Source: Raja brachyura | Taxonomy: Eukaryota | Length of the DNA: 64,000 nt | Assembly: GCA_963514005.1 (NCBI GenBank) | Contig: OY740804.1 | Coordinates: forward strand, 5,146,001-5,210,000 | Direction of reading: 5' to 3' | In this document: positions 5,349 through 64,000 of the stretch, in pieces | Position numbering within the stretch: the stretch's first letter is position 1 | Layout of the letters: every line of letters begins with the position of its first letter | Made by a program: the position numbers and the translations under genes | Notes under the pieces: model-generated | What the model was told of the DNA's origin: nothing | Seen by the model: the letters and a program-made list of their open reading frames with translations, nothing else | The model's database searches: none

Positions 5349-5700
5349 CAATATGACGACTAGGCTGGGTGGAGAGGGGATGCAAGGGTTACCTGAAGTT
5401 GGAGAAATCAATATTCATACCGCTGGGTTGTAAGCTGCCCCAGTGATAGATGTTCCTCTAATTTATGTGTGGCCTCACTTTGACTGTGAAGGAGGCCCAG
5501 CTCAGAATGGGAAGGGGAGTGAAAGTGTTTAGCAACAGGGAGTTCACTTTGTGTGTCGTTGTACATCGTGTGGTTTGCTGCAGCCACAGTTCTTGAATCA
5601 GTAACTTCCTGTCTGCTGTAGATCTGCCCACATGCAAAACCAACATCAATATAACTGAGCTGAGCACTAGTTTTAACCACAGGCTTTGCTTTTAACTAGA

Positions 5701-14539: not shown

Positions 14540-14719
14540 CTAAGATCGGAACACCAGAGCAGAATATTCCACCGATTCTGACGAATGGATCTTGACGTCT
14601 TCATTTTGCTCTTTTAGATCCTTAAGATTGGAATAAATTGCAGGGCTTGCTGCGGTCTGAGCTGACGACTGAATGGTCACGGTGGAATATGCAACCGTAT
14701 CTTCAGTTTCTCCTTCAGA
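14540..14719 (-). CDS. Gene A terminal exon, ITIM-bearing tail
   Basis: Acceptor TTTTTTTGTTTCAG; encodes SEGETEDTVAYSTVTIQ...PAIYSNL...SVEYSALVFRS*. VAYSTV and VEYSAL fit the (I/V/L/S)xYxx(L/V) consensus. Confidence 0.85.
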   Translation of the reverse strand, partial: SEGETEDTVAYSTVTIQSSAQTAASPAIYSNLKDLKEQNEDVKIHSSESVEYSALVFRS

Positions 14720-29360: not shown

Positions 29361-32082
29361 CGTGGTTCCAGTGAGTGAGAGGTCCTTGTTTGCCGATGAA
29401 GCGGTCTCCAATTCGTGCTGTTCACGACTTACTCTTGTTTGATTTAACTCTTGTTCGAATGAACAAATGCTTAGCAATGTGACATAGAGTAAGGAACATT
29501 GACCCATATCCTGTTTTGCAACCTGTTGCATGCACATTGTCAACGGTTCCACTTTGGGGGATTAACTGTGGTTGGCAGAGGTTTGAGGAGAAGACAAGCT
29601 GAACTGAAGCAGGTTTCCAGTGAGGGTATCCACACTTACGTGGTCATATCCCAATCCTGTCCTCCTTAAAGATCAGTGTTGGGAGATGCACTTTTTAAAA
29701 TTAATACTTTGTAATCCAATGTAGAATAAGGAACATTGACAAACATCCTGTTTCACAACTTGCTGAACTTACAGTGCCAGAGACCTGGGTTCAATTGTGA
29801 CTATGGGTGCTGTCTGTACGGGGTTTGTACGTTCTCCCCATGACCGCGTGATTTTCTCCCAGCGTGTTCCGGTTTCCTCGCACTATCCAAAGACGTGTGG
29901 ATTTGTAGGTTATCTGGCTTCACTAAGTTGTAGATTGTCCCTCGTGTGTCGGATGGTCCTAGCGTACGGGGTTGTCTACAGAGATGCTGTCTGACCCGCT
30001 GGGTTACTCTGGCTTTTTGTGTCTACCTTCCGTTTAAACCGGCATCGGCAGTTCCTTTCTAAACAGTTGAAATTATTCCTTCATGGCTTGGAAGAGTGCT
30101 GAGAAGATTTATCAGGATTTTGCCAGGACTCGAAGATCTGAGCTACAAGGAGGATGTGTCTCACCCTGGCCACTCCCTCTTCTCCCCTCTCTCATCAGGC
30201 AAGAGGTACAGAAGTTTGAAAACGCACACCTGCAGATTCACGGAGTTTCTTCCTTCCTTCATGTTATCATGAAACGGAACCTTCTTATTACTAACTAGAG
30301 ACTGATCCTGACCTACCATCCACCTCATTGGAGACCCTTGCACCATCTTTAATTGGACTTTACTGGACTTTATCTTGCACGGAACCTACAGTATTTCCCT
30401 TTATCCTGTATCTGTACACTGTGGATGGCTTGGTTGTAATCACGTATAGTCCTTTTGCTGACTGGATAGCATGCAAGAAAAAAGTTTTCCATTGTGCCTT
30501 GGACCATGTGATAAACTAAATGATAAACTAAACTAAATTTGGATAATCTAGGACTTTATTCCTTGGAGCACAGGAGGCTGAGGGGGGTGGAAGATTGCAA
30601 CCTTCACGTGGTCCGCCCTGTTTCGACTAATGCAATCAACTCAACGTGCACACGCAGAAGATCAAATAGAACAAGTTGTCCTACAACTTTAGGGTGTGCA
30701 TGCCATACGAAAGAAGACGAAGGAGGCTGAGGGGTGATCTTATAGAGGTGTATACACTCATGAGGAGGAATTGATAGGGTGAGTTCACAGAGCCTTTTAC
30801 CCAGAGTAAAAGGGGAATCAAAATCCAGAGGACAAGTTTAAATTGAGGGGGGAGGGATTTAATAGGAACCTGAGGGGCAAGCATTTCACTCAGAATGTGG
30901 TGGGTGTATGGAACGAGCTGTCAAAGGAGGTAGCTAATGCACTTACTATAACAACATTTAAAAGACAATTGGACAGGTACATGGATAAGAATGATTTAGA
31001 GGGATATGGATCAAATGCTGCCAAATGGGACTAAATAGGTGGGGCATTTTGGTCAGCATGGATGGGTGAAGGGTCTATTTCCGTGCGATATAATTATGCG
31101 TCTATGATTCTAATTAATTACCATGATAACCTCTCTGATGCTGCGGAGACATGCTGCCTCGATGGTCAAATCCTACGACTAGGAAGATGAAAGTCAATGT
31201 GATCTTGACCTCCATGGATGGAGTAGACCAGGTATGAAGGTCTTCTTGTATCTCAATGTAGACAGACTTGGAATATCATAAGGTATCATAATATCTAGGG
31301 GCGCAGCGGTAGAGTTGCTGCCTCACAGCACCAGAGACCTGGGTTCGATCCTAACTACAGGTGCCTGTCTGTATGAAGTTTGTACATCCTCCCCGTAACC
31401 TGTGTGGGTTTTCTTCAGGATCTCCAGTTTCCTCCCACACTCCAAAGATGTGCAGGATTGTGGACTAATGGACTTGGTATAATTGTAAATTGTCCCTGAT
31501 GTGTAGGATGGTGTTAGTGTGCAGGGATCGCTGGTCGCCGCAGACTTGGTAGGCCTAAGCGGTTGGTTCAATAGCCAATAGACAATAGATACAGGAGTAG
31601 GCCATTCGGCCTTTTGAGCCAGCACCGCCATTCAATGTGATCATGGCTGACCATCCCCAATCAGTACCCCGTTCCTGCCTTCTCCCCATATCCCCTGACT
31701 CCGCCATCGTTAAGAGCCCTATCTCGCTCTCTCTTGAAAGTATCCAGAGATCCGGCCTCCACCGCCACTGTTCCTCTAAACTAAACCAAACTTAGAAATG
31801 CCAGTGTCAGCTGAGTGGCCTTTCAGTAATAAGGAGAGTACTGTGCCTTGAATTTCAATGGGACAGTTCTGGTTTGCAGTTTTGAGCAATTTGGTATTGG
31901 TATGAGTAAAAATTGTGGTTGTGCAATGAATGCAATCATTTACTGCATGTCAGCGGTGCTGGGAAAGTGTCAAGCATAGTGTGCCCAGGAACGAGAGCTC
32001 CAATTGCAGAACTTTACATTGCGAAATTGTAAGCATGATTGACTCAGGGTAAGAGAGTCAAAGGTTATGGGAACCACTCGAG

Positions 32083-34100
32083 CATGTGAAAACGAGGAAT
32101 TATAGACCAGTTAGTCTTACATTGGTAGTGGGGAAGATGCTGAAATCGATTATTAAGGATGTTATAGCAGCGCATTTGGAACGCAATGACAGGATCGGCC
32201 AAAGTCAGCATGGATTTATGAAGGGGAAATCATGCTTGACTAATCTTTTGGATTTTTTTGAGGATGTAACAAGTAGAATGGATAAGGGAGAGCCAGTGAA
32301 TGTGGAGTATCTGGACTTTCAAAATGCCTTTGACAAAGTCCCACACAAGAGATTAGTGTGCAAAATTAGAGCACATGGTATTGGGGGTAGGGCATTGAAA
32401 TGGATAGAGAACTGTTGGCAGACAGGAAGCAAAGAGTAGGAATTAACAGGTCCTTTTCAGAATGGCAGGCAGTGACTGGTGGGATGCCACAAGGTTCGGT
32501 GCTGGGACCCCGTTATTTACAATATATTATCGATTTAGACGAGGGAATTAAATGTAACATTACTAAGTTTGCAATTGACACAAAATTTGCTGGGTGGCAG
32601 TGTGATATGCAAGGAAGATGCTAAGAGGCTGCAGGGTGACTTGGACTGGTTGGGTGAGTGGGCAGAAGCATGGCAGATGCAGTAAAATGTGGATAAATGT
32701 GAGGTTATGCACTTTGGTGGCAACAGGAAGGCAGATTATTATCTGAATGGTGACAGATTAGGAGAAGGGGAGGAGCATCAAGACCTGGGTGTGCTTGTAC
32801 ATCAGTCACTGAAAGTAAGCATGCTGGTACAACAGACAGTGAAGAAAGCCAATGGCATGGTGGCCTTTATTTGAGAGGATTTGAGTTTAGGAGCAAGGAG
32901 GTCCTACTGCAGTTGTACAAGGCCCTGGTGTGACCACACCTGGAGTATTACGTGCAATTTTGGTCTCCTAATTTGAGGAAGGACATTATTGCTATTGAGG
33001 CAGTGCAGCGTACATTCATCAGGTTAATTTCCAGGATGACGGGACTGACATATGATGATAGAATGTGTCGACTGGGCTTTTATTCATTGGAATTTAGAAG
33101 GTTGAGAGGGTATCTTATAGAAACATATAAAATGGAGCGCAGAAGGTTAAGGGGGGACTTGATAGAGGTCTTTAAAATGATGAGAGGGATAGACAGAGTT
33201 AATGTGGACAAGCTTTTCCCTTTGAGAATAGGGAAGATTCAAACAAGAGGACATGACTTTAGAATTAAGGGACAGAGGTTTAGGGGTAACATGAGGGGGA
33301 ACTTCTTTACTCAGAGAGTGGTAGCGGTGTGGAATGAGCTTCCAGTGGAAGTGGTGGCGGCAGGTTCGTTGGTATCATTTAAAAATAAATTGGATAGGCA
33401 TATGGATGAGAAGGGTATGGAGGGTTATGGTATGAGTGCAGGCAGGTGGGACTAGGGGAAAAAAGTTGTTCGGCACGGACTTGAAGGGCCGAGATGGCCT
33501 GTTTCCGTGCTGTAATTGTTATATGGTTATATGGTTATTCTTAGAGTATTGGACAGGTTAGATGCAGGAAAAATGTTCTCGATGTTGGGGGAGTCAGAAC
33601 CAAGGGACATAGTTTAAAAATAAGTGGTAGGCCATTTAGGACTGAGATGAAGGAAAACCTTTTCACCCGGAGAGTTGTGAATCTGTAGAAGGCAGTGGAG
33701 GCCAATTCATGAAACTTAGTTTAGAAATACAAAATGTAAACAGGCCCTTCGGCCCAACGAGTCCACACTGACCGTTGATCAACCGTTCATATTAGTTCTC
33801 CCGGAGACACACTTTTCACCCGGAGAGTTGTGAATCTGTGGAATTCTCTGCCATCGAAGGCAGCGATCGCCAATTCACTGGATGTATTCAAGAGAGAGTT
33901 AGATTTAGCTCTTAGGGTTAAGGAATCAGGGGATATGGGGAAATAGCTGGAACGGGGTACTGATGTCACTGAACCTTAATTGGTGCATGTGACAATAAAT
34001 GTGAACTTGAACTTGATTGTGGATGATCAGCCTTGATCATATTGAATGGCTCAAAGAGCCGAATGGCCTCATCCTGCACCTATTGTCTATGTTTCGATGT
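32083..34100 (+). mobile_element. CR1-clade LINE RT fragment with a nested second CR1 3' end (~33133-33536); duplicate at ~60457-62395
   Basis: NYRPVSLT, QHGFMKGKSCLTNL, YLDFQNAFDKVPH, PQGSVLGP motifs with frameshifts; the nested piece ends in (TATGGT)n. Confidence 0.9.
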
Positions 34101-34101
34101 T

Positions 34102-34920
34102 TGGAGTGGCAGCTGCGGCTCGCCTGCAGTCCGTCTGTTTTTTCTTTTTTTGTTGTTGTCTTGTCCTGTTTTAGCATGTTAATTTGAGTTATTATGTTGT
34201 GTATGTGTGTGGGAGGGGTGGGAGAAACGTTTTTAGTCTCTTCCTTCGGGGGGACGCGACTTTTCTTGTCGTATCCCCCGTCTCCGTCTCCGTCTGCGCT
34301 GAGGCCTAATGGCGGAGCTGGTAGCTTCCAACTGCGACCGACCTCGAGGCTCCGGAGGCATGCCAGCCAGGACTTACCAGCTCGAGGCTGGCCGACTTCG
34401 GGGCCGCGGCGGGTTCAGGCATTCCGGCGTTCCGGCGGCCCGACTCGGAGCTGTGGCGGCTTTCCGTTGCCGGCGGCAGCGACTTCGGAGGCCCGGCCGC
34501 GGGCCCAGTGGACGACATCATCGGGAGCTCACAGGTCACAGGTTGGTGACCTGTTTTTCCGGTCCACCCGTGGCAACAGCTGAGTCGGCTGGACTGGAGG
34601 GCGGCAGCTTCGGCAGCTTCGACCGCCCCAGGCCGCGGAGTTGAACCGGCCCGTTCGCAGAGCACGGTTCAGCCACGGGACTTACTTACATCACCCGGTG
34701 GGGTCACAACATCGGAGGCCTGGGTCGCCTCAGCGCAGAGGAAGAACAAGAAGGGAAGAGACAAAGATTTTGCCTTCCATCACAGTGAGGCGGTGTCTGG
34801 TGAACTCACTGTGCTGGATGTTAAATTTGTGTTTATTGTGTGTTTTGTTATTTTATTACATGTATGACTGCAAGGCAACGAAATTTCGTTCAGACCGAAA
34901 GGTCTGAATGACAATAAAGT
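34102..34920 (+). repeat. GC-rich non-coding interspersed repeat with a LINE-type 3' tail (duplicate at ~62396-63215)
   Basis: GC-rich body ending in hairpin TTCAGACCGAAAGGTCTGAA followed by TGACAATAAA, the same tail type as the Rex1-like fragment. Confidence 0.55.
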
Positions 34921-35614
34921 TTCCACGATTCCATGATATACTGGTCAGTACAAGTATCCCTATACCTAAGCACTTGGATACATCTTAGATAAGCATCTCA
35001 GATACAGTGCAAGTGTATATATAGCACTGGTACACAGAGACAGTGTGCAGAGTTAGCTCCCATACATGCCTGGAAAACCATGGAAAACCATGAAAACATG
35101 CAAACATGAAAAACGATGAAATGCAACAAAATGTGTCTGTTCTCCTTCTGTTAGACGGACAAGAGCAATGAGAATTACCAGCGGAAATGAGTTTTGCTTA
35201 AATATTTAAAGTTGTTTGGATGGTGAGTAATCAATAATTGCATTCAATCAACCCCCCCCCCCCCCCACTCCTCACTCGCACATTTTGTGCCCCCCACTCC
35301 CCACGTCTCTTCCAGTTTAATAACCAGAGGCTTTTTCACGGGGTAGCACGGTGGCGCAGCGGTAGAGTTGCTGCATGAAGGACGTTGCAATTGTAACAAC
35401 TTCTCTTTCCACATGCGTTGTGAAGCTCGATTGAATACCGATGGTGGCGTCAATGGTGGGCTGAGAGACGTTGTTGTTTCGCTCTGCTCCCAAAGACTGT
35501 TTTAATGAGCTAAAATATGAAGACGGAAGAGTTATAAAAATAACTACCGGAGCTGTTATTTAATTGTGTGTTATCAGAAGTCCTGCTGATAACAGAGAAT
35601 AACGGCAGTTTTAA

Positions 35615-36658
35615 ATGAAAAAGACTAAAACCCGCCAGAAGCCTTCGAAAGCTGCTACAAGATCTGCACAAACTTATCTGAAAAAATCTGGAAAGACTCC
35701 TCAATCCCCGCAAGCATCAGCTGGAAGTTCAGAAGAAGAAACTGACTTTGAAAACCCTTCTACAGAAATGACTTCAATGGAGGAACAACTGGTAAAGTCA
35801 GTAACAGCTTTAGTCACTGAAAACATCTCTAAAGTGATACGAGAGGGGAATGTTGCGCTGGAAAAAAGACTTTCCAAAAGCCTCTCTGAAAAAATTAAAC
35901 AAGGTAATGATAAGCTGATGGGGAAAATTGACGACTTAGCCAAACGTGTGGTCGAGATTGAGGAGGACTTAAACAATAAAATTAAGCGGGTTGATAAGAA
36001 CTGGAATAAAAAGCTGGACGCGATGTCAAAGTCCACTGAAGCGGCGATAGAAGGAATGGATAATTCGTTAACTGAGATGGCTAAGGAGATAAAGAGACTA
36101 AAAAAGGAACAAGAAAGTACTGGGAGGGAGCTTGCTAAAATGAAATATAAATGTATGGACCTGGAAGCAAGATCGGGGAGACAAAACTTGAGGATAGTTG
36201 GAGTAAAAGAAGGAATGGAGAGTGGACAAAACTTTCAGGAGTTTGCTGCCAACTTACTCAAACAAGTACTTAAGCTGCCTGAAGCCCCGAGAATAGATAT
36301 GGTTCACTGGGTCCAACGTAAGGCTCAAGCAAGCTCAAATGGCCCCCCAAGACAGATTATTATGAAATTCTATGATATTTCAACCCTGGAAGGAATTATG
36401 AAAAAGATCCCATATGGAGTGAATTTGATGTTTGGAGAAGACAAACTAAGATTCTTCCGTGATTTTCCAGCTGAAGTCATGGAAAAGAGGGACCAGTTTA
36501 CAAACACGAGAAGGCTACTGAAGGAGGTCGAGGGAGTAAGATATAGGATAGTATATCCCGCGAAATTGAGAATTACTTATAACTCTGTCGAACGTGCATT
36601 CATGGATCCAGTAGAGGCATTTAAATATGCACAAAGTATCACACAGGAGGCCTACTGA
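35615..36658 (+). CDS. L1 ORF1p (coiled coil, RRM, CTD)
   Basis: 347-aa open frame with DLEARSGRQNLRIVGVKEG, PRQIIMKF and YPAKLRI motifs. Confidence 0.9.
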   Translation: MKKTKTRQKPSKAATRSAQTYLKKSGKTPQSPQASAGSSEEETDFENPSTEMTSMEEQLVKSVTALVTENISKVIREGNVALEKRLSKSLSEKIKQGNDKLMGKIDDLAKRVVEIEEDLNNKIKRVDKNWNKKLDAMSKSTEAAIEGMDNSLTEMAKEIKRLKKEQESTGRELAKMKYKCMDLEARSGRQNLRIVGVKEGMESGQNFQEFAANLLKQVLKLPEAPRIDMVHWVQRKAQASSNGPPRQIIMKFYDISTLEGIMKKIPYGVNLMFGEDKLRFFRDFPAEVMEKRDQFTNTRRLLKEVEGVRYRIVYPAKLRITYNSVERAFMDPVEAFKYAQSITQEAY

Positions 36659-45484: not shown

Positions 45485-46039
45485 AGGGCCGGTCCTACAA
45501 GCATGCAACTCTATGCGATTAGCGCAACCTAACGTGGTCGCTTGAGCCGTCCGGCGTCGCGGGGCCGGTCCCACGTCAATTGCTGGAGCCGTGCGGAATT
45601 GTGCGGAGTTTGTCCCGACATCGCGCGGGACTCCGAAAAACTGACTGTGTTCAAAAATTCCACGCGGCAATGGCTTGTCGGCTCGCAGTCGCCTCGACGC
45701 ATGACACACCGCCCCGACATCACGCCTCCATGCACCTATCTGTAGGTGCCTCTGTGACCCTCTATGTGTGTGAGCCTCTGTGCCCCTCTCTGTGTGCCCC
45801 TCTCTGTCCTGGCGAACTTACCTTAGACTTCGCTCCAAGTTCGCCTCACTTTGAGCCGCGTTGCGCCACTCACCCGACCTCCGCGCGGCCCCTGCTGCCG
45901 GTTTGGTCGTGTTTCCCGCATGCAGGCGCATGCTGGTGGGAACGGCCCTGTACAGGGGATCACCTGACCTCCGCGCGGCCCCCGCTTCTAGTTTGATCGC
46001 GTTCATCGCATAGAGTTGCATGCTTGTAGGACAGGCCCT
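45485..46039. mobile_element. Second copy of the PIF/Harbinger-type MITE
   Basis: Same TIR and body as 16757-17332; TAA TSD at 45482-45484 and 46040-46042. Confidence 0.88.
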
Positions 46040-46288
46040 TAAGTTTCAGTGAGGTCCACAAGGCAAGCTGTAGGTAGTTATCTCCCTTCTCCACAGGGAG
46101 CTAGCTGTGCAATTTGGCTGCACACAACATGACAACAACCGCTGATGGAAGTCTTTACAGGAACTAACGAGTGTTGAGCAATTTATCATCAGCTCCTCAC
46201 ACAGTACAGAGAGTCTGTGGTTACAAATAATTCAAGGCGCTGGTAAATAATTCTAAAGAACAGAGCATTTTGTAAAACAACGATTTAC

Positions 46289-46385
46289 CTGGTGTGAGAC
46301 CAACAGCAACAAGAACCAACAGAGCGACTGTTCCCCTGGATCTGGGCCGTTTCTGGTGGGTGAATTCTCCCTGTCCCACTGCCAT
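46289..46385 (-). other. Candidate orphan or alternative signal-peptide exon
   Basis: GACATGG start; MAVGQGEFTHQKRPRSRGTVALLVLVAVGLTP then phase-1 CAG|GTAAAT donor. Confidence 0.45.
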
Positions 46386-46920: not shown

Positions 46921-49900
46921 ACACAGAATGCAAGGGCGGAAATGTAGAAACAAGGAACTGTAGATACTGGTTTATACCAAAGATGGACACAAAGTGCTGG
47001 TGCATCTCAGTGGGTCAAGCAGCTTCTCTGGAGGATGGGCACCATTTCAGGATGGGATCCTTCAGAGTGGTCCTGACCTCCCAACTACCCCATTCGAGAC
47101 CTTGGAACTATCTTTAATCGGATTTTACTAGACTATCTTGCAACAGATTCCTTGAATGCAAACATGAAAAGTCATCATGGTGCTTCCTCATTTCACAAGC
47201 GGCTGGGTCTCACATGCATCTTCTATGTGTGACCTGTGTTCTAGGTTCAACATTTCCCACGCTGTTTCTAGCAAGAGTCCTGTGTGACTTTACCACGCTA
47301 ACCGAGCCACACCAAGGACCAGTGTTGGGTTCTGCAGTGCAAGTTCAGTGGGTGAAAACTATTGAGTGAGTTAGAGAGTTGTTGGTTCAGTTCCCTCTGC
47401 AGACGCCGAGCACAGAGGGAGAGCTGTACTGAGGGAGCTCTGCATTGGAAACATAGAAGCATAGAAGCATAGAAAATAGGCGCTGGAGTAGGCCATTCGG
47501 CCCTTCAAACCAGCACCGCCATTCAATATGATCATGGCTGATCATCCTAAATCAGTACCCAGTTCCTGCTTTCTCCCCATATCCCTTGATTCCGTTTGTC
47601 CTAAGCGCTGTGTCTAAAGTTGCTGGAGGTGCTGTCACTCTGATGAGGCATTTATCTGGTCTGCTGCTCTGCTGTCTGCTCTCTCAAGCCTGCTCTCTCC
47701 CTTCAGAGCGGCACGGTGGTGCAGCGGTTAGCTGCTGCCTCACAGCGCCAGAGACCCGGGTTCGATCTTGACTACGGGTGCTGTCTGTGTGGAGTTGGAA
47801 CGTTCTCCCTGTGACCTCGTGGGTTTCCTCCATGTGCACCGGATTCCTCCCACATCCCTAATCCATGCGAGTTTGTACGTTAAACACCTCTACAAGATTG
47901 TCGCAAATGTGTAGGGAATGGATGAGAAAGTGGGATAACAGAACTAGTGTGTACAGGTAGACAAAAATGCTGGAGAAACTGCGTTTTTGTCTAGCTTCGC
48001 TTTTCCAGCATCTGCAGTTCCTTCTTAAACATAGTGTGTACAGGTGATCAATGGTTGGCGTGGACTCGGTGGATCAATGGGCCTGTTTCCATGCGGTATC
48101 TCTAAACCAAACTAATTCTACTCGTATCACTTATGACCTTATGACAAAAATTCAGAAACGTTACCCAGGAGAAATAAGACAACGCCAAACGTGATCAGGT
48201 AAGTCCACTCACGTCACCAGATAAACACCAGATAGATTCTTAATTAGTAATTAGTACATGTGTCAGAGGTTATGGAGAGAAGGCAGGAGAATGGGGTTGG
48301 GAGGGAGAGATAGATCAGCCATGATTGAATGGTGAAGTAAACTTCATGGGCCGAATGGCCTAATTCTACTCTTATCACATGGCCTTATGACAAAAATTCA
48401 GCCATCTTTATTTACGTTCGATTATATTAACCATTATTCAATGTGCAGGGTTTTACACAGCAATTCAATTAGTAGTAAAGTTAAAAGTTCACATTCTGGA
48501 GAGCCAGCTTTGAGTTCTAGTCTATGTACTGCTGTCTTTTGGGTGAATGTCAGGATGTACAGACATGTCTGCAAACATAGGTACAGAATTCGGCAATTTG
48601 CTCCATCGAGTCTACTCCACCACTCAATCATGGATGATCTATCTTTCCCCCTCCATCCCATTCTCCTGTCTTCTCCCCACAACTTTTGACACCCTGAGTG
48701 AACCTGTCTCCAATTTTAAAATATCCATTGACTTGGCCTCCACAGCCGTCTGTGGCAATGGATTCCACAGATTCATCACCCTCTGGCTAAAGAAATTCCT
48801 CCTCAAGTGGTCAAGTTAGATTGGACATAGGTGGGGTGTGGTGATGCTGTAGGGTCAAGGTGATGAGATTTGTACATCTCCAACTGGTGAACACCCTCTC
48901 TGGCCCTGAAAAGCTAAACGATGATTATTCCATCAGAATAACAATATTGATATAAAGTTTACCTTTAATTTTTATCTTATTCTTCTAACGTGTGTCCACA
49001 GTTCAATACTTGTAATCATTTAACCATTTTTATATCCCCATTGCTCAATGGTTCAATGGTACTTTATTGTCTAATGCACGTGGGTACAGTGACATTTCTT
49101 TTGCATAGAATTCAGTCAAAATCTTACTTTATATAAGCACAGCTGAAGCTAAGAACAAGAGTATTAATAGCAGATTATATGATGCAGTGCACAAAAGTTG
49201 CCACATTTCTGGCGGTATCTTATATTTTTAACGATCAAATTGGTAAAAAAGTAGTCTTATTTTGGGTTTAAAGGCCCGTTGTCGTGGAGACGGCACTGGG
49301 TGGGAGTTGCAGGGTTCAGCCTGGCCTGGCGATGTTGTCGGTGCCTCCACCACCGCCGCTCCGTGCCGCTCCAGGCCGTGTCCGGTCCGCGCGCTCGTCC
49401 CCGACCTCTGTGGGACCTCCAGCGGCACCCGATCCATCGGCTGCTGCAGGGCCTCCAGCAGCCCACTCGCACTCCGCCCACACCTCGACCCACCAACGCA
49501 CCCTTTTCCCCTCGCCTCCCACGGCCGTCTCCATGCGAGGTGAGGCCCCACCCAGCCAGCTCACCGGCGCTGTTCCTCTCCTCCCTCCACCACTGCTGAC
49601 CCCATCTCCAAGGTCTCGGCTGTTTTTTCCCTTGAATAAAAATTAAAACACAATTTATAATCTCTACCATCAAATTTTACCCGAGGATATGACCCTGGGC
49701 GGCACAGTGGCGCAGCGGTAGAGTTGCTGCCTTACAGCGCCAGAGACCCGGGTTTGATCATGACTACGGGTGCTGTCTGTACGGAGTTTGTATGCTCTGC
49801 CTGTGACAGCGTGGGTTTTCTCCGGGTGCTCCGGTTTCCTCCCACAATCCAAAGACGTGTAGTTTTGTAGGTTAATTGGCCTCTGTATAATTGTAAATTG

Positions 49901-51699: not shown

Positions 51700-51807
51700 C
51701 TTTTAAAAGTTGTCACACAGCTGATGGAAAGCGGGAAGAGAAGCAGAACTCCAAAGAGTACCCAGCGTAACACACCCCAAACACGGCGAACATTCAGCAC
51801 GATGTCC
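51700..51807 (-). CDS. Gene B transmembrane exon with an intramembrane arginine
   Basis: TTGGATTTCCAG|G...AAAAG|GTAAAA; encodes RDIVLNVRRVWGVLRWVLFGVLLLFPLSISCVTTFK. Not present in the ORF track. Confidence 0.8.
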
Positions 51808-54800
51808 CTGGAAATCCAAGGAAATATTATTACTTCCACACAGAATTATCAAAGGTCAAGGCTGGCAATTTGTTTTCATCATATTGCACACGGAATCATT
51901 CAGTGTGATCCAAGGTTGTGGCGTAGACATTGGTGAGATGTTTATATCGCAACATGCACCCATTCCTTGGAGGTGTTCCATGACTACATACATTAACAAC
52001 TTAGATGTTCATGTTGGTGGTCAGACATACAGCACGAAAACATGTCCTTTGACCCAATTTCCCCACGATGACCAAGACGCCGTTATCTACACTAGTCCCA
52101 TCTGCCGGCCTTAGATGTTATTGTTGGAAGTATGATTAACGAGTTTACAGATTACACCAAAATTGTATCATTTTGGATAGTACGATAATCATAGACCACA
52201 GAGGGATAAGAAGCAACTGGTATGTTGGGCAGAGCAATGCCAGCAGGCATTGAACCGTGATATGTGTGAAGTTATTTGTTTTTGGCATCAAATAAGGGTA
52301 GACGTTCACAATGGTAGGGCCACTGGGTGTACTAAGGACAGAGGGACTTTAGTCAGGGCCAAGGAGTATTTATCAATGGACTGGAATGTGATCAGCCACG
52401 CTTTCTCAAAGTACTGGGACTGATTTTACAGACAACAGGATACGTTTCCCCTCTACTCAAACTTTCACAACTGAGAAAGGTTGTAGATGGTCACAAAATG
52501 CTGGAGTAACTCAGCGGGTCAGGCAGCAGGAATGCTGCCCTCACCCGATGTAGCAAAGTCCACCTGGTCTGTACTCTTCCAGGACAGCACCAAGAGAGGA
52601 AGATCAGGCTGTGGAGATTGGAACGTAGATGATTTTGAACAATGTGTCTGCTGTTGTATAGTAAGTAACAATAACCCACTGCGATCGCCAGTAAACTCGC
52701 TGATTGTATTTATCCTTCTTGTTAATCATGGGCTGCTCGCTTCAGCCGTTGCCTGTGGTGAAGCTGTGCACGGCTGAGTTGGTCCTTTGAGTCTGTATGG
52801 AGTTTCTACGTTCTCCCCGTGACTGGGGTTTTCTCCGAGATCTTCGGTTTCCTCCCATAATCCAAAGAAGTGCATAAATGTCTTGGCTTGGTATAAATGT
52901 AAATTGTCCCTGGTATGTGTAGGATACTGTTAGTGTGCGGGGATCGCTGCTCCGTACGGACTCGGTGGGCCGAAGGGCCTGTTTCTGTGCTCTATCTCTA
53001 AACTAAACTAAACTAAACATGACGTATTGAACCAATACCAACAACAATCAGTAAATAATTATTAGATTGAGGATGACTGCAGAAATCTTACCTTGCTTTG
53101 TTGCTTGGTACCTCTGGTTTTGTTATCGTTCCTGAGGTGGGTTGTTAAAATAAACATATTATACCAATTCATATCAATTACAACACAACATAACCTAATC
53201 TCAAGGAACTACAGATGCTGCAAATTGCCCTTTAGTCTGTAAGGAGTAGATGCAAAAATGGGATAACATAAATCTAGTGTGAATGGATGATGGATGGTTG
53301 GCATGGACTAGATGGGCTGAAGAGCCTGTTTCCATGTTGCATCTTTCAATTCAATTAATATGTATATTAACAAGAGGTTCAGAATGTCTGTCTAAGAGTA
53401 ATAAACATATGTGAAATATTTAGTAATAAATTCCACAGGACAAGGTTTAGGGAAAGCTTTGAAGATATGAGGTTGGGGGAGATGAGAAGAATTAGAAGGC
53501 TGTGGAGGCCAAGTCAATGGATATTTTTAAGGCAGAGATTGATAGATTCTTCATTAGTACGTGAGTAAGGGGTTATGGGGAGAAGGCAGGAAACTGGGGT
53601 TGAGAGGGAAAGATAGATCAGCCATGATTGAATGGCGGAGTAGACTTGATGGGCCGAATGGCCTAATTCTGCTCCAACAACCTACCAGAATGGAGAGAGA
53701 TATGTGGAATATAATATCAGTAAAGACTGTTTGCATGCTGAATTTCTACATAAATGTTGAATCACAGTAATCTTATGTTGATTTATACCTTTAAACATCA
53801 CGGTTTTAACCTGTGAGATCTCAAAGTCGACTGGTGTCCTGGCCCCACACCAATATTCCCCCACATCTCCTTCATCAGTGTGCCTGATCGTGAAAGCAAA
53901 GTTGTTGAATTTGTTCCCACTGATTGATAATTTGCTGCTGTTGTAGTGTTGAGGCGTCACTATGATGCTGCAACTATTCACAGAGACGACTTTACACAAG
54001 AATTTCTCATATTCTTCAAATTGCACCTTGTATCGGCAATGTATAGTGGTGGCATTGCCCATTATGCCCTTGACTGTGGTACGGTTTAGTATCCGTGAAT
54101 CTGCTGTAATGGAAACAAAATGAGGGTATGAGAGATCAGAGATGCTGACTGTTGACTTTATTAGGCCAAGAGCCAAGGATGCACAAACCTTAGTTTAGAG
54201 ATACAGCCCACCGAGTCTGCACCGACCAGCGATCCCCGCACATTAACACTTTCCTACACACACTAGGGATGAGTTATAATTTTACTGAAGCCAATTAACC
54301 TACAAACCTTGGAGTGTGGGAGGAAACCGGAGCACCCGGGGAAAACCCACGAAGGTCATGGCGAGAACGTACAAACTCCGTACAGACAGCACCCGTGGCC
54401 AGGATCGAACCCGGGTCACTGGGGCTGGAAGGCGGAACTCTTCCGCTGTGCCACGGGGTGGCACCCTCATTAATGGGATGCTGAAGATGGAGAGATAACG
54501 AGGTGAAATCAAACGTAGACTCGGCGACCGTTTTGCCGAACACTTGTGCTCGGTCCGCCAAGGCCTACAGGATCTCCCACTTGTCAACCATTTCAACTCC
54601 CCTTCCCATTCCCACATTGATCTTTCTGTCCTGGGCCTCCTCCATTATCAGAGAGAGGCCCTGGGCAAATTGGAGGAACAGCACTTCATATTTTGCTTGG
54701 TTCGCTTACAACCCAGCGGTATGAATGTTGAATTCCCTAATTTTAAGTAACTTCCACTAACACTCCACTCTCCTCCCCACCTTGCCCCCTTCCACCCTAG

Positions 54801-57509
54801 TTCCACCAGCTCTTCCCCATCTCCAAACTTACAGTCTGAGGAATTGCCCTGACCCGCAGCGGCTGGCCTTGTTTGTATACTCTAGAATTTAGAAGGAGAT
54901 CTTATTGAAACATATAAGATTATTAAGGGTTTGGACACGCTAGAGGCAGGAAACTTGTTCACAATGTTTGTGGAATCCAGAACCAGGGGCCACAGTTTAA
55001 GAATAAGGGGAAAGCCATTTAGAATGGAGATGAGGAAACACTTTTTGTTGTGAGTCTGTGAAATTCTCTGCCTCAGAGGGCGGTGGAGGCCGGTTCTCTG
55101 GATACTTTCAAGAAAGAGCTCGGTAGGGCTCTTAAAGATAGCAGAGTCGGGGGATATGGGGAGAAGGCAGGAACGAGGTACTGATTGGGGATGATCAGCC
55201 ATGATCACATTGATCACACTGGCTCGAAGGGCTGAATGGCCTACCCCTGCACCTATTGTCTATTGTCTATTGACCGAAAATGTCACCTATTCCATTTCTC
55301 CTGGGTGCTGCCTATCCCCCTGAATTACTCCGGCATTTTGTATCTATCTTCGGTGTAAACAAGCACCCTCCTACACACCTTTGTAAGTTAAACTTGCTTA
55401 ACAATCGGTAGACATAAGGAACTGCAGATGCTGGAATCTGTGTAGAAAGTGCTGCAGTAACTCAGCGGGACGGGCAGCACCTCTCCATAACAATCAGTAT
55501 GCTCATTATGGCACAGTAGTCCAAGTGTATATTATCAGTGAAGCATATTATCAGTCTTAAAATCTTCAGAAAATCTCTTACCTGTGAAAACATCCAACAT
55601 GACAATATCTGAAACATTGATTTTCTTTGCCTGAAGTGTTCCACACCAGTATGTTCCTGCATCATTCTTCTGAAGTTGACTTGTTACAAAAACAGACCCA
55701 TTGAGTCTTCTCATTGATATCCTTCCACTACGGTCCTCTTCTTTCTCAGTGTTGACTATTACTTGACACCCCACTCGAGAATAGGCTTTGCACCAGCTGA
55801 CATGTCCTGTTTTCTGAGCGTTTGGACATTCTATAGTCACTGTTTCTCCCTCGCCAGCTCTTATCACCATCAAGTGAAGCTGTGCTATGGAACCTGTTGG
55901 GTGAAATTTAATGCTGTAAATTTTACAGAATCACATCAAAATATTCCCATAACCACCCCCCCCCCACCCCCCCCCCGGACATAATCTCAGGTTCATAAAT
56001 TATAGGAGAACATTTAATCCATTCAGTTCATCGTCTGCCCCATAATGGCTGATCTATCTCTCCCTCTCAACCCAATTCTCCTGCCTTCTTCCCAAAACAC
56101 CTAACACCCTTTTAACTGACCAAGAATTGGAGAATCTATGCCTTAAAAATACCCAATGACTTGACCTCCACAGCCATCTGTGGCAATGGATTCCACTGAT
56201 TCACCACCCTCTGACTAAATAAATTAATCCGCAACTCCTTTGTACAGGTATGTTCTTTGTAACAGGTACAGGTACAGGTCAGTAGCGAAGCGGTAGAGAT
56301 GCTGCCTTACAGCGCCAGAGACCCGGGTATGTGTTCAGTCTGTATGGTGTTTGTACGTTCTCCCTGTGACCTGCATAGTTTTTCTCCGGGTGCTCCAGTT
56401 TCCTCCCACACTCCAAAGACGTGCAGGTTTGTAGGTTAATTGGCTTAGGTAAAAATCTTTCCTCGTGTGTAAGATAGAACTAATGTGCGGATATCGCTGG
56501 TGGTTCGAAGCGCCTGTTTCCACGCTGTATCTCCAAACTAAACTAAACGTCCTGTTATTCTGAGGCTGTGCACTCTGGTCCTAGACTCTCCCACCAGTGG
56601 AAACATCCTCTCCACATCCACTCTATCCAGGCCTTTCACTATTCGGTAGGTTTCAATGCCCCCCTCATCCTAAAATGGGAGGTGGGAGGAAACTCGAGCA
56701 TCCGGAAGAAACCCATATGGTGACGGGGAGAAACTCCACAAAGACAGCATCCGAGGAAAGATTACCGTAAAAATCTTCTGTGCTGCATCTTAACTGAAAA
56801 TCATAGAACAGTACAGCACAGGAACAGGCCATTTGGCCCACAATCGCCATGCTGAACATGATGCCATGACCAACCCCTATCTGCCTGCTCATCATCCATA
56901 TCTTTCCATTCCCTGCATTTCCATCTGCCCCTGCAGACTGATTGTGGTGGGGTATTCTCCACACCCCTCTTGCCCCAACGCAATCAGTCTGAAGAAGGGT
57001 CCTGGCCCAAGTTATCACCTATCCATGTTCTCTAGAGATGCTGCCTGACCCGCTGAGTTACTCCAGCACTTTGTGTCTTTTTTCTCTTACATGCATGTGC
57101 CAGTCCGAAAGTCTCTTAAATCCTCTGCTAAATCCCATGCACTTGTCACAGTTTGTTTTAACTCTTGCTGAAATGTAAAGTTAATTGGTTCCTTTCTAGG
57201 CTCCTGGTCCTTTGGCTGAACAGCAGTGTATCATCACTTATTTAAATAACAAGAGCTAATCTTCGGGTTAACATATAACTGCGCTATGGTTCCATGACCA
57301 TAAGTTAATGGGGCAGAATTAGGCTGTTCGGCCCATCATGTCTTCTCCGCCATTCAATCATGGCTGATCTATCTCTCCCTCCTAACCCCATTCTCCTGCC
57401 TTCTCCCCATAACTCCAGGCACCCGTACTAATCATGAATCTGTCCATCTTAGCTTTAAGTGGAAAAACTTACTTGAAGTCACAGTGAGAAACAGCAGAAT
57501 GTAAAACAT
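51700..57509 (-). CDS. Gene B: two-Ig-V-domain CD300/pIgR-like putative activating receptor; exons 57473-57509, 55582-55893, 53789-54103, 53092-53131, 51700-51807, terminal exon unresolved
   Basis: Exons 1-4 duplicate gene A with intact splice sites. The phase-2 stalk exon joins in frame to a distinct TM exon. Confidence 0.82.
53789..54103 (-). CDS. Gene B Ig V domain 2
   Basis: Same exon structure as 25630-25944; 4 amino-acid differences. Confidence 0.92.
55582..55893 (-). CDS. Gene B Ig V domain 1
   Basis: Same exon structure as 27423-27734; 6 amino-acid differences. Confidence 0.92.
57473..57509 (-). CDS. Gene B signal-peptide exon
   Basis: Identical to the gene A leader MFYILLFLTVTS with a GTAAGT donor. 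Confidence 0.85.
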
Positions 57510-57713
57510 CGTGGTTCCAGTGAGTGAGAGGTCCTTGTTTGCCGATGAAGCGGTCTCCAATTCGTGCTGTTCACGACTTACTCTTGTTTGATTTAACTCT
57601 TGTTCGAATGAACAAATGCTTTGCAATGTGACATAGAGTAAGGAACATTGACCCATATCCTGTTTTGCAACCTGTTGCATGCACATTGTCAACGGTTCCA
57701 CTTTGGGGGATTA

Positions 57714-58081
57714 GAAACATAGAAACATAGAAATTAGGTGCAGGAGTAGGCCATTCGGCCCTTCGAGCCTGCACCGCCATTCAATGTGATCATGGCTGAT
57801 CATCCAACTCAGTATCCCGTACCTGCCTTCTCTCCATACCCCCTGATCCCTTTAGCCACAAGTGCCACATCTAACGCCCTCTTAAATATAGCCAATGAAC
57901 TGGCCTCAACTACCTTCTGTGGCAGAGAATTCCAGAGACTCACCACTCTCTGTGTAAAGAATGTTTTCCTCATTTCGGTCCTAAAGGAATTCCCCCTTAT
58001 CCTTAGACTGTGACCCCTTGTTCTGGACTCCCCCAACATCGGGAACAATCTTCCAGCATCTAGCTTGTCCAACCCCTTAAC
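57714..58081 (-). mobile_element. CR1 3' fragment present only in the gene B upstream region
   Basis: Empty site in copy A reads GGGATTA|ACTGTGGTT (~29563); (TAGAAACA)n tail and CR1 C-terminal ORF 57809-58171. Confidence 0.9.
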
Positions 58082-61000
58082 ACTGTGGTTGGCAGAGGTT
58101 TGAGGAGAAGACAAGCTGAACTGAAGCAGGTTTCCAGTGAGGGTATCCACACTTACGTGGTCATATCCCAATCCTGTCCTCCTTAAAGATCAGTGTTGGG
58201 AGATGCACTTTTTAAAATTAATACTTTGTAATCCAATGTAGAATAAGGAACATTGACAAACATCCTGTTTCACAACTTGCTGAACTTACAGTGCCAGAGA
58301 CCTGGGTTCAATTGTGACTATGGGTGCTGTCTGTACGGGGTTTGTACGTTCTCCCCATGACCGCGTGATTTTCTCCCAGCGTGTTCCGGTTTCCTCGCAC
58401 TATCCAAAGACGTGTGGATTTGTAGGTTATCTGGCTTCACTAAGTTGTAGATTGTCCCTCGTGTGTCGGATGGTCCTAGCGTACGGGGTTGTCTACAGAG
58501 ATGCTGTCTGACCCGCTGGGTTACTCTGGCTTTTTGTGTCTACCTTCCGTTTAAACCGGCATCGGCAGTTCCTTTCTAAACAGTTGAAATTATTCCTTCA
58601 TGGCTGCGAAGAGTGCTGAGAAGATTTATCAGGATTTTGCCAGGACTCGAAGATCTGAGCTACAAGGAGGATGTGTCTCACCCTGGCCACTCCCTCTTCT
58701 CCCCTCTCTCATCAGGCAAGAGGTACAGAAGTTTGAAAACGCACACCTGCAGATTCACGGAGTTTCTTCCTTCCTTCATGCTATCATGAAACGGAACCTT
58801 CTTATTACTAACTAGAGACTGATCCTGACCTACCATCCACCTCATTGGAGACCCTTGCACCATCTTTAATTGGACTTTACTGGACTTTATCTTGCACGGA
58901 ACCTACAGTATTTCCCTTTATCCTGTATCTGTACACTGTGGATGGCTTGGTTGTAATCACGTATAGTCCTTTTGCTGACTGGATAGCATGCAAGAAAAAA
59001 GTTTTCCGTTGTGCCTTGGACCATGTGATAAACTAAATGATAAACTAAACTAAATTTGGATAATCTAGGACTTTATTCCTTGGAGCACAGGAGGCTGAGG
59101 GGTGATCTTATAGAGGTTTATACAATCATGAGGAGGAATTGATAGGGTGAGTTCACAGAGCCTTTTACCCAGAGTAAAAGGGGAATCAAAATCCAGACAA
59201 GTTTAAATTGAGGGGGGAGGGATTTAATAGGAACCTGAGGGGCAAGCATTTCACTCAGAATGTGGTGGGTGTATGGAACGAGCTGTCAAAGGAGGTAGCT
59301 AAGGCGCCTACTATAACAACATTTAAAATGCAATTGGACAGGTACATGGATAAGAATGATTTAGAGGGATATGGATCAAATGCTGCCAAATGGGACTAAA
59401 TAGGTGGGGCATTTTGGTCAGCATGGATGGGTGAAGGGTCTATTTCCGTGCGATATAATTATGCGTCTATGATTCTAATTCATTACCATGATAACCTCTC
59501 TGATGCTGCGGAGACATGCTGCCTCGATGGTCAAATCCTACGACTAGGAAGATGAAAGTCAATGTGATCTTGACCTCCATGGATGGAGTAGACCAGGTAT
59601 GAAGGTCTTCTTGTATCTCAATGTAGACAGACTTGGAATATCATAAGGTATCATAATATCTAGGGGCGCAGCGGTAGAGTTGCTGCCTCACAGCACCAGA
59701 GACCTGGGTTCGATCCTAACTACAGGTGCCTGTCTGTATGAAGTTTGTACATCCTCCCCATAACCTGTGTGGGTTTTCTTCAGGATCTCCAGTTTCCTCC
59801 CACACTCCAAAGACGTGCAGGATTGTAGACTAATGGACTTGGTATAATTGTAAATTGTCCCTGATGTGTAGGATGGTGTTAGTGTGCAGGGATCGCTGGT
59901 CGCCGCAGACTTGGTAGGCCTAAGCGGTTGGTTCAATAGCCAATAGACAATAGACAATAGATACAGGAGTAGGCCATTCGGCCTTTTGAGCCAGCACCGC
60001 CATTCAATGTGATCATGGCTGACCATCCCCAATCAGTACCCCGTTCCTGCCTTCTCCCCATATCCCCTGACTCCGCCATCGTTAAGAGCCCTATCTCGCT
60101 CTCTCTTGAAAGTATCCAGAGATCCGGCCTCCACCGCCACTGTTCCTCTAAACTAAACCAAACTTAGAAATGCCAGTGTCAGCTGAGTGGCCTTTCAGTA
60201 ATAAGGAGAGTACTGTGCCTTGAATTTCAATGGGACAGTTCTGGTTTGCAGTTTTGAGCAATTTGGTATTGGTATGAGTAAAAATTGTGGTTGTGCAATG
60301 AATGCAATCATTTACTGCATGTCAGCGGTGCTGGGAAAGTGTCAAGCATAGTGTGCCCAGGAACGAGAGCTCCAATTGCAGAACTTTACATTGCGAAATT
60401 GTAAGCATGATTGACTCAGGGTAAGAGAGTCAAAGGTTATGGGAACCACTCGAGCATGTGAAAACGAGGAATTATAGACCAGTTAGTCTTACATTGGTAG
60501 TGGGGAAGATGCTGAAATCGATTATTAAGGATGTTATAGCAGCGCATTTGGAACGCAATGACAGGATCGGCCAAAGTCAGCATGGATTTATGAAGGGGAA
60601 ATCTGGACTTTCAAAATGCCTTTGACAAAGTCCCACACAAGAGATTAGTGTGCAAAATTAGAGCACATGGTATTGGGGGTAGGGCATTGAAATGGATAGA
60701 GAACTGTTGGCAGACAGGAAGCAAAGAGTAGGAATTAACGGGTCCTTTTCAGAATGGCAGGCAGTGACTGGTGGGATGCCACAAGGTTCGGTGCTGGGAC
60801 CCCGTTATTTACAATATATTATCGATTTAGACGAGGGAATTAAATGTAACATTACTAAGTTTGCAATTGACACAAAATTTGCTGGGTGGCAGTGTGATAT
60901 GCAAGGAAGATGCTAAGAGGCTGCAGGGTGACTTGGACTGGTTGGGTGAGTGGGCAGAAGCATGGCAGATGCAGTAAAATGTGGATAAATGTGAGGTTAT

Positions 61001-63732
61001 GCACTTTGGTGGCAACAGGAAGGCAGATTATTATCTGAATGGTGACAGATTAGGAGAAGGGGAGGAGCATCAAGACCTGGGTGTGCTTGTACATCAGTCA
61101 CTGAAAGTAAGCATGCTGGTACAACAGACAGTGAAGAAAGCCAATGGCATGGTGGCCTTTATTGTGAGAGGATTTGAGTTTAGGAGCAAGGAGGTCCTAC
61201 TGCAGTTGTACAAGGCCCTGGTGTGACCACACCTGGAGTATTACGTGCAATTTTGGTCTCCTAATTTGAGGAAGGACATTATTGCTATTGAGGCAGTGCA
61301 GCGTACATTCATCAGGTTAATTTCCAGGATGACGGGACTGACATATGATGATAGAATGTGTCGACTGGGCTTTTATTCATTGGAATTTAGAAGGTTGAGA
61401 GGGTATCTTATAGAAACATATAAAATGGAGCGCAGAAGGTTAAGGGGGGACTTGATAGAGGTCTTTAAAATGATGAGAGGGATAGACAGAGTTAATGTGG
61501 ACAAGCTTTTCCCTTTGAGAATAGGGAAGATTCAAACAAGAGGACATGACTTTAGAATTAAGGGACAGAGGTTTAGGGGTAACATGAGGGGGAACTTCTT
61601 TACTCAGAGAGTGGTAGCGGTGTGGAATGAGCTTCCAGTGGAAGTGGTGGCGGCAGGTTCGTTGGTATCATTTAAAAATAAATTGGATAGGCATATGGAT
61701 GAGAAGGGTATGGAGGGTTATGGTATGAGTGCAGGCAGGTGGGACTAGGGGAAAAAAGTTGTTCGGCACGGACTTGAAGGGCCGAGATGGCCTGTTTCCG
61801 TCCTGTAATTGTTATATGGTTATATGGTTATTCTTAGAGGATTGGACAGGTTAGATGCAGGAAAAATGTTCTCGATGTTGGGTGAGTCCAGAACCAAGGG
61901 ACATAGTTTAAAAATAAGTGGTAGGCCATTTAGGACTGAGATGAGGGAAAACCTTTTCACCCAGAGAGTTGTGAATCTGTAGAAGGCAGTGGAGGCCAAT
62001 TCATGAAACTTAGTTTAGAAATACAAAATGTAAACAGGCCCTTTGGCCCAACGAGTCTACACTGACCGTTGATCAACCGTTCATATTAGTTCTCCCGGAG
62101 ACGCACTTTTCACCCGGAGAGTTGTGAATCTGTGGAATTCTCTGCCATCGAAGGCAGCGAACGCCAATTCACTGGATGTATTCAAGAGAGAGTTAGATTT
62201 AGCTCTTAGGGTTAAGGAATCAGGGGATATGGGGAAATAGCTGGAACGGGGTACTGATGTCACTGAACCTTAATTGGTGCATGTGACAATAAATGTGAAC
62301 TTGAACTTGATTGTGGATGATCAGCCTTGATCATATTGAATGGCTCAAAGAGCCGAATGGCCTCATCCTGCACCTATTGTCTATGTTTCGATGTTTGGAG
62401 TGGCAGCTGCGGCTCGCCTGCAGTCCGTCTGTTTTTTCTTTTTTTGTTGTTGTCTTGTCCTGTTTTAGCATGTTAATTTGAGTTATTATGTTGTGTATGT
62501 GTGTGGGAGGGGTGGGAGAAACGTTTTTAGTCTCTTCCTTCGGGGGGACGCGACTTTTCTTGTCGTATCCCCCGTCTCCGTCTCCGTCTGCGCTGAGGCC
62601 TAATGGCGGAGCTGGTAGCTTCCAACTGCGACCGACCTCGAGGCTCCGGAGGCTGAGCCAGCCAGGACTTACCAGCTCGAAGCTGGCCGACTTCGGGGCC
62701 GCGGCGGGTTCAGGCATTCCGGCGTTCCGGCGGCCCGACTCGGAGCTGTGGCAGCTTTCCGTTGCCGGCGGCAGCAACTTCGGAGGCCCGGCCGCGGGCC
62801 CAGTGGACGACATCATCGGGAGCTCACAGGTCACAGGTTGGTGACCTGTTTTTCCGGTCCACCCGTGGCAACAGCTGAGTGGGCTGGACTGGAGGGCGGC
62901 AGCTTCGGCAGCTTCAACCGCCCCAGGCCGCGGAGTTGAACCGGCCCGTTCGCAGAGCACGGTTCAGCCACGGGACTTACTTACATCACCCGGTGGGGTC
63001 ACAACATCGGAGGCCTGGGTCGCCTCAGCGCAGAGGAAGAACAAGAAGGGAAGAGACAAAGATTTTGCCTTCCATCACAGTGAGGAGGTGTCTGGTGAAC
63101 TCACTGTGCTGCATGTTAAATTTGTGTTTATTGTGTGTTTTGTTATTTTATTACATGTATGACTGCAAGGCAACGAAATTTCGTTCAGACCGAAAGGTCT
63201 GAATGACAATAAAGTTTCCACGATTCCATGATATACTGGTCAGTACATGTATCCCTATACCTAAGCACTTGGATACATCTTAGATAAGCATCTCAGATAC
63301 AGTGCAAGTGTATATATAGCACTGGTACACAGAGACAGTGTGCAGAGTTAGCTCCCATACATGCCTGGAAAACCATGGAAAACCATGAAAACATGCAAAC
63401 ATGAAAAACGATGAAATGCAACAAAATGTGTCTGTTCTCCTTCTGTTAGACGGACAAGAGCAATGAGAATTGCCAGCGGAAATGAGTTTTGCTTAAATAT
63501 TTAAAGTTGTTTGGATGGTGAGTAATCAATAATTGCATTCAATCAACCCCCCCCCCCCCACTCCTCACTCGCACATTTTGTGCCCCCCACTCCCCACGTC
63601 TCTTCCAGTTTAATAACCAGAGGCTTTTTCACGGGGTAGCACGGTGGCGCAGCGGTAGAGTTGCTGCATGAAGGACGTTGCAATTGTAACAACTTCTCTT
63701 TCCACATGCGTTGTGAAGCTCGATTGAATACC

Positions 63733-64000
63733 GATGGTGGCGTCAATGGTGGGCTGAGAGACGTTGTTGTTTCGCTCTGCTCCCAAAGACTGTTTTAATG
63801 AGCTAAAATATGAAGACGGAAGAGTTATAAAAATAACTACCGGAGCTGTTATTTAATTGTGTGTTATCAGAAGTCCTGCTGATAACAGAGAATAACGGCA
63901 GTTTTAAATGAAAAAGACTAAAACCCGCCAGAAGCCTTCGAAAGCTGCTACAAGATCTGCACAAACTTATCTGAAAAAATCTGGAAAGACTCCTCAATCC
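63733..64000 (+). mobile_element. 5' end of the duplicated L1 (ORF1 ATG at 63908), truncated by the window
   Basis: Matches 35440-35707. Confidence 0.92.

Follow-up and report, generated by a model that had tools for sequence, protein, structure and literature searches.

A likely inhibitory/activating pair of CD300/pIgR-like receptor genes in Raja brachyura and its differences in the predicted Ig1 binding cleft

Described paired receptors and the locus

Paired receptors with fast-changing binding loops are already known from mammals and frogs, so the principle as such is not new. In primates, according to PMC12447643, CD300A and CD300C combine an ITIM-bearing partner with a partner that has a charged transmembrane (TM) segment, and their ectodomains are alike within a species. 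CD300lf and CD300ld likewise work as such a pair. Extracts of PMC2213150 on KIR/Ly49 and of PMC5112662 on the paired CEACAMs of Xenopus describe activating partners that are short-lived and arise repeatedly, with ectodomains that are homogenised while orthologues diversify. For the clearnose skate, PMC3031540 mentions the modular domain immune-type receptors (MDIR), a multigene family whose CD300/TREM/pIgR-like members include activating as well as inhibitory ones.

The window analysed here, a stretch of 64 kb in its full length, contains an 11-kb direct duplication with copies that are 98.4-99.6% identical. The A copy lies at 24847..35707 and the B copy at 53006..64000, continuing past the window end (no strand is assigned to either block). 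Both copies carry a leader, two V-set Ig exons and a stalk exon on the minus strand, where all coding exons of the two genes are found. Gene A consists of the signal-peptide exon (29324..29360, from the ATG), the 312-nt Ig1 exon that is compared with its paralogue in B (27423..27734), the Ig2 exon (25630..25944), the stalk exon (24933..24972), an uncharged TM exon matching Amblyraja XP_032898784.1 (23956..24071), a first cytoplasmic exon (15455..15492) and a last exon encoding a third tyrosine besides two consensus ITIMs (14540..14719), which is 92% identical to the Amblyraja tail. Gene B has the corresponding signal-peptide exon (57473..57509, from the ATG; the exon start may lie further upstream), a 312-nt Ig1 exon for a V-set domain of CD300/pIgR/TREM-like fold (55582..55893), the Ig2 exon (53789..54103) and a stalk exon with one silent and one replacement difference from A (53092..53131). 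They are followed by a TM exon with an arginine (51700..51807), which is predicted to be activating and has a homologue in the TM exon of Leucoraja XP_055510911.1, and by a predicted short tail exon without tyrosine (49561..49630), whose splice is predicted from homology to the same protein. A last exon of gene B at 48905-48803, suggested by splice phase only, was dropped in favour of 49630-49561, which has a homologue. Residues are numbered from the ATG, at 29360 in A and 57509 in B.

The gene models have open frames and AG/GT exon ends, both Ig1 exons included. As in paired receptors, the ectodomains of A and B are linked and nearly identical (10 differences in ~209 Ig residues, or 95% identity, with the genes 28 kb apart). 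A combines ITIMs with an uncharged TM segment, and B has an arginine inside the predicted TM segment and a 23-residue tail without tyrosine, its exon joining being predicted. Gene A matches XP_032898784.1 over its full length. The nearest proteins come from Amblyraja radiata and Leucoraja erinacea, are 81-83% identical in Ig1 and are both of the A type. XP_032898784.1, XP_055510919.1, XP_059806113.1 and others are direct orthologues or co-orthologues of gene A; the name "polymeric immunoglobulin receptor-like" of these batoid models is an automatic annotation. The homology search returned no B-like model for Amblyraja or Leucoraja, and a search for short relatives of gene A Ig1 returned none.

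A comparison with the described systems shows both likeness and difference. The locus resembles CD300A/CD300C in its combination of ITIM and charged-TM partners, in ectodomains that are alike within the species and in fold. However, CD300 receptors have a single extracellular Ig domain (PMC12447643) and the CD300C TM segment has a Glu where B has an Arg; with two Ig exons, the present genes are thus not CD300 proper. B also differs in that its TM and tail apparently come from a different gene. For mouse CD300lf and murine norovirus, ligand, virus and effect were shown (extracts of PMC6166816 and PMC7431780), whereas here a cleft is predicted at 24% identity. True pIgR transports polymeric Ig; gene A has ITIMs instead, and its pIgR-like name in the database is automatic. 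KIR/Ly49 become activating via TM/tail mutation, as described in the extract of PMC2213150, while here a whole TM/tail module seems to have been grafted at a SINE. The MDIR family is likened by its description (PMC3031540, in part), and protein homology searches with the window genes returned no MDIR sequence. No description of this locus was found among the open-access papers searched.

Several repeats accompany the genes. A LINE-like, AT-rich element (L1-like by eye) occupies 35707-43000 and begins at the end of the A copy of the block. At ~5700-10300 and 17500-22750 lie two retroelements that are related to each other, have terminal repeats and tyrosine-recombinase-like frames and are DIRS-like by eye; they gave weak incidental hits in the similarity search, and the second sits in an intron of gene A. 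A Tc1/mariner-like transposon (by eye) is found between the TM and tail exons of gene B at ~50000-51500. Two dispersed repeat pairs, 850-1716 / 4452-5349 and 16754-17336 / 45482-46043, are 83% and 88% identical.

The junction and the origin of gene B

The TM segment and tail of B are identical to Leucoraja XP_055510911.1, a three-Ig receptor of the little skate, in 52 of 59 residues (33 of 36 for the TM exon alone). The Ig domains of that protein are only ~24-33% identical to the Ig domains of the window. A SINE copy at 52800..53005 (strand not assigned), with ~90-92% identity to the SINE of A, marks the right-hand junction of the duplication in B. Past the stalk the two copies show no difference in 86 positions, then 7/72 and 10/131 from the SINE tail onward. 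The SINE at the A-side junction carries an inserted element of ~155 nt with inverted ends (24620-24775), which is absent from B. Gene B looks like a young chimera, judged from these sequences, in which the ectodomain block of A is joined at the SINE tail to the TM and tail of another pIgR-like gene. SIGLEC14/16 are a closer parallel to such a grafted TM/tail module.

Intron divergence between A and B is 0.4-1.8%, as compared with ~4% to the contigs of other organisms. Thus the junction event, or the last conversion, is recent. Stingray and manta (Hypanus and Mobula) have predicted models with the same pairing of ectodomain and Arg-TM, and this counts against a recent origin; a less favoured alternative is that the pair is old and that conversion has kept its members similar. 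The TM exons of the stingray and manta Arg-TM forms are only 34-41% identical to that of B. Cover of the B TM region by the sequencing runs X10 and X19 was considered as proof of an old gene B and rejected, since this TM exon belongs to another gene in Leucoraja.

An orphan leader exon at 46289..46385 on the minus strand belongs to the three-Ig pIgR-like family; across 35 residues it is 91% identical to the N-terminal end of XP_055510911.1. No Ig exons of such a three-Ig gene are present within the 64-kb window. The end of the orphan leader and the Ig1 acceptor agree in splice phase. This exon may be what is left of a deleted gene, or else gene A, 18.5 kb downstream, may use it as an alternative first exon.

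Substitutions in the Ig domains

From A to B the Ig1 exons differ by seven substitutions in six codons (G52R, E53V, E54G, K89N, K98T and S99L), none of them silent, and the exon comparison thereby confirms what the original prediction had stated for these 312-nt exons. For Ig2 it had given five substitutions in four codons, all changing the residue. The counts are correct (Q140R, A155V, A165V and V187F), but codon 140 reads CAG in one copy and CGA in the other, and either mutational path forces one silent step. This codon is CGG in three of four sequencing runs aligned to the window. The common stalk exon adds a silent ACA/ACG change.

The lack of silent changes had been put forward as an argument for selection. 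Non-synonymous sites make up 74-78% of all sites, and seven non-synonymous changes out of seven are at chance level, with binomial P of 0.175, 0.143 and 0.126 at a transition bias of 1, 2 and 3. Ig1 and Ig2 together give 11/12 non-synonymous changes (P 0.15-0.23), and all common exons give 12/14 (P 0.25-0.37). For the whole Ig1 exon dN/dS is thus not significantly above 1, the outcome named beforehand as speaking against the proposal. A comparison with introns had also been proposed. Divergence between the copies is uneven, being 36/2134 (1.69%) in introns 2 and 3 versus 43/7692 (0.56%) in intron 1 and the upstream region (P 3e-6). The local intron rate of 1.69% predicts 5.3 substitutions for Ig1, and the seven observed are ordinary (P 0.28). 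Against three introns pooled the non-synonymous rate of Ig1 reaches P 0.026, but this pooling mixes two divergence strata. The share of transversions, 6/7 in Ig1 versus 37/79, is borderline (P 0.055). Sequencing error is unlikely for the Ig1 exon of B, the copy to which this applies: a spliced contig of run X1, possibly from the same individual, has identical letters over 55582-55896.

An AlphaFold2 model of B Ig1 was built from a 16-row alignment (pLDDT 90.7). The nearest solved folds are those of CD300c, CD300a, TREM2, FcmR, CD300lf and pIgR D1, with Z of 12.5-13.8, rmsd of 1.9-2.7 and 94-102 aligned residues; they are tied within ~1 Z, and antibody V domains come next at Z ~11. The Pfam V-set scores of Ig1 are 38.4 (B) and 41.2 (A) bits against a cut-off of 26, and those of Ig2, 21.5 and 25 bits, are slightly below it. 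Extra C-C' disulphide cysteines, a trait of CD300/TREM/pIgR-like receptors, are found in both domains (C47/C55 in Ig1, C153/C161 in Ig2), and those of Ig1 lie on strands C and C' in the model. In CD300lf, according to an extract of PMC6166816, phosphocholine and norovirus are bound in the cleft between CC' and CDR3, whose floor is made up by Cys36-Cys44, Gln41 and Arg42. Mouse alleles are distinguished by four consecutive CC' residues (39-42), on which virus entry depends (PMC7431780, in part). C47-C55 are spaced like Cys36-Cys44 of CD300lf, so that residues 52-53 correspond to Gln41/Arg42 in our own mapping, and CD300lf residues 39-42 fall on residues 50-53 by the same cysteine spacing. By this analogy and from the model, the CC' and FG/CDR3 loops of Ig1 likely form a binding cleft as in CD300lf.

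The changes had been said to cluster in predicted ligand-binding loops, which is true of most of those in Ig1. Codons 52-54 (55769..55777, minus strand; R-V-G in B, G-E-E in A) form, in the model, the CC' coil between strands C and C', and codons 98-99 (55634..55639, minus strand; T-L in B, K-S in A) lie at the end of strand F and the start of the FG (CDR3) hairpin. The statement fails for codon 89 (55664..55666, minus strand; N in B, K in A), placed by the model in a short EF helix outside the cleft, and for Ig2, where only residue 155 of the four lies in the CC' loop by cysteine positions. In Leucoraja, Amblyraja and Hypanus the residue at 89 also switches an N-glycosylation sequon on or off; here it does not, with Ala at 91. 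Another sequon at 105, on the CDR3 edge, is common to both window copies and absent from both skate outgroups.

With the tested loops taken as residues 48-54 and 98-105, limits that were set after the differences were known, six of the seven Ig1 substitutions fall in the CC' and FG/CDR3 loops, which hold 14% of the non-synonymous sites (P 4e-5). These cleft loops have six substitutions on 33 non-synonymous sites versus 0.56 expected (Poisson P 3e-5), and the loop test with all four loops gives P 0.002. In non-coding DNA none of 8961 overlapping placements of the same shape reaches five substitutions, the maximum being four. The result depends on how neighbouring changes are counted. When each cluster is taken as a single event, the two events give P 0.11 at the rate of introns 2 and 3, and all signal is lost when substitutions at most 10 bp apart are merged into three Ig1 events, although the outgroups divide the clusters between the copies. 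After polarising, at least four separate loop events give P 0.003, a count that depends on two outgroup proteins and on an assumed ATT ancestral codon at 99. The non-coding DNA of the block itself has three places where three substitutions lie within 8 bp, and neighbouring substitutions are at most 10 bp apart in 16 cases versus 5.6 expected.

Which copy has changed was judged from the Amblyraja and Leucoraja orthologues for the 11 residue differences before the TM exon. B has the residue of both outgroups at 52, 98, 140, 155 and 227 and of one outgroup at 89. A agrees with both at 53 and 165 and with one of them at 187. For residues 54 and 99, no match to an outgroup exists in either copy. 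Thus six changes are assigned to A (89 probably), three to B and two stay open; the branch lengths are 0.036 for A and 0.021 for B. The proposal that one partner was retuned finds no support: six of 11 changes are on the inhibitory gene A and three on B, with E53V in the same loop as G52R. Since residue 52 is derived on A but residue 53 on B, the clusters do not each represent a single event. The same alternation of derived states within one loop makes it unlikely that one tract converted from a third paralogue explains the changes; conversion among paralogues or alleles more broadly may still have contributed. V187F (53894) is derived on B and, by its pattern, this position alternates into the E-strand core of Ig2; in a gene this young the change may be drift with a mildly harmful effect.

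The spliced X1 contig (631 nt) equals B over Ig1, has the A residues at 165 and 187 and ends before the TM exon. It is either a further allele of A or B or an assembler chimera, and even as a majority chimera it needs a third sequence. Among 40 of 428 difference rows listed for the runs aligned to the window, none has A-derived letters, and the variants in these 40 rows are replacements in 4/4 cases for Ig1 versus 3/5 for Ig2. In run X6 two contigs differ at three Ig1 replacement sites in 55735-55770 (codons 54, 64 and 66), so two alleles or paralogues exist in that organism too.

Ig1 is also variable in other batoids. In three predicted paralogues of Hypanus sabinus 14 of 103 Ig1 positions vary, six of them in the cleft (P 0.005). 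The variable sites include 53, 89 and 99, three of the six of the window (P 0.03, or 0.055 when restricted to 78 variable sites). One of the Hypanus models is a mosaic of the other two. Cleft positions show 4.3 different residues versus 2.5 elsewhere among 11 batoid sequences (P 7e-5). Hypanus sabinus and Mobula hypostoma differ at 56/104 positions in Ig1, 16/105 in Ig2 and 10/71 in the tail; the ITIM and Arg-TM forms of Mobula birostris differ by 0-1 residues, and in a 12-row tree the paralogues cluster by species. In contigs of runs X10 and X19, from two other organisms, the divergence from B in Ig1 is about twice that of the introns: 23/310 versus 37/984 in largely intronic pieces for X10 (P 0.008) and 25/367 versus 35/936 for X19 (P 0.015), where depth is only 3-4 and errors are possible. 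The intron controls are two of eight listed pieces for X10 and four of eight for X19, with Ig exons, repeat pieces and one overlapping piece left out. Under harsher counts (gaps counted, or four differences removed) the X10 test gives P 0.053-0.055.

Proposed explanation and alternatives

We lean somewhat towards the view that A and B are an inhibitory/activating CD300/pIgR-like pair, with B a recent chimera and the Ig1 cleft under diversifying selection in both lineages. Recombination between SINEs in intron 4 would have placed the promoter region, leader, Ig1, Ig2 and stalk of A before a foreign TM/tail, donated presumably by a neighbouring three-Ig pIgR-like gene. A is predicted to inhibit via its ITIMs. 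B would activate through its TM arginine, which is predicted to bind an ITAM adaptor; FcR-gamma is recruited by an N-terminal TM arginine. Replacements in the cleft would have been favoured repeatedly, more often on A than on B, and the A/B differences would be a snapshot of a fast-changing surface, in part older allelic variation, rather than the retuning of one partner. By analogy with the described systems, the selective agent would most likely be a microbe that binds the inhibitory receptor. The diversifying selection of the original prediction thus finds support at the level of the cleft and not in the whole-exon test. Pressure on the cleft is indicated by the clustering relative to the intron null, by the same sites varying in a stingray and by an exon divergence above that of introns in X10 and X19. 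These loop-level and cross-species proxies are significant under some ways of counting only.

A bolder and tentative version is that B is a newborn activating receptor, in which exon shuffling at a SINE grafted one allele of an inhibitory receptor with balanced polymorphism onto the activating TM module of another gene and so froze its cleft as a pathogen trap. The inhibitory gene would keep cycling its alleles, and the same pair would have evolved separately in rays. The divergence of 1.69% near the Ig exons versus 0.56% and the third haplotype of X1 would then be footprints of balancing selection.

It is possible, though on the unlikely side, that positive selection played no part and that tolerant surface loops of a patchily homogenised duplicate were hit by two multi-nucleotide mutations or short conversion tracts. 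Multi-nucleotide mutations can mimic selection, as an extract of bioRxiv 10.1101/165969 reports. The chance level of 7/7 (P 0.13-0.18), the ~5.3 substitutions expected locally, the two-event P of 0.11, the frequent clusters in introns and the mosaic stingray model are all compatible with this, and weak constraint also predicts loop variability across species. However, weak constraint cannot raise exon divergence above that of introns, as seen in X10 and X19, and it has to face derived states that alternate between copies in one loop (A at 52, B at 53) and the same sites varying in a stingray. Selection on one partner with the other static, whether an activating decoy or an inhibitory receptor in escape, is improbable. 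The longer branch of A and its six of nine polarised changes would fit inhibitory-receptor escape, but the three B-derived changes, E53V among them in the same loop, two sites at which both copies are unlike both outgroups, and the X1 contig with a B-type Ig1 and A-type 165 and 187, either third haplotype or chimera, argue against it.

We consider it very improbable that two alleles of gene A were stacked by the assembly and one of them misjoined to a neighbouring TM exon at the SINE. Such an artefact would agree with the upstream divergence of merely 0.56%, with a junction inside a repeat, with the lack of a B-like model from Amblyraja and Leucoraja, and with the B stalk-to-TM splice being absent from the 15 of 2593 joints listed. 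Yet the SINE copies differ by 8-10% over ~200 bp, which we infer is too short to mislead a long-read assembler. The chimeric model is also intact in frame and splice phase, Hypanus and Mobula have annotated models with the same architecture, and run X1 has depth on the B TM exon and zero on the adjoining intron.

If the paired, chimeric origin with a selected cleft is true, it would extend the principle of paired receptors with fast-changing loops to cartilaginous fish and to a CD300/pIgR-like family. It would also offer an activating partner whose birth can be dated and whose breakpoint is mapped, and residues 52-54 and 98-99 would be the place to seek a ligand or pathogen. Indels between the copies upstream of the leader, one of 368 nt in B only (57714-58081) and two of 149 nt (30573-30721) and 80 nt (32230-32309) in A only, are usable as dating or phasing markers.
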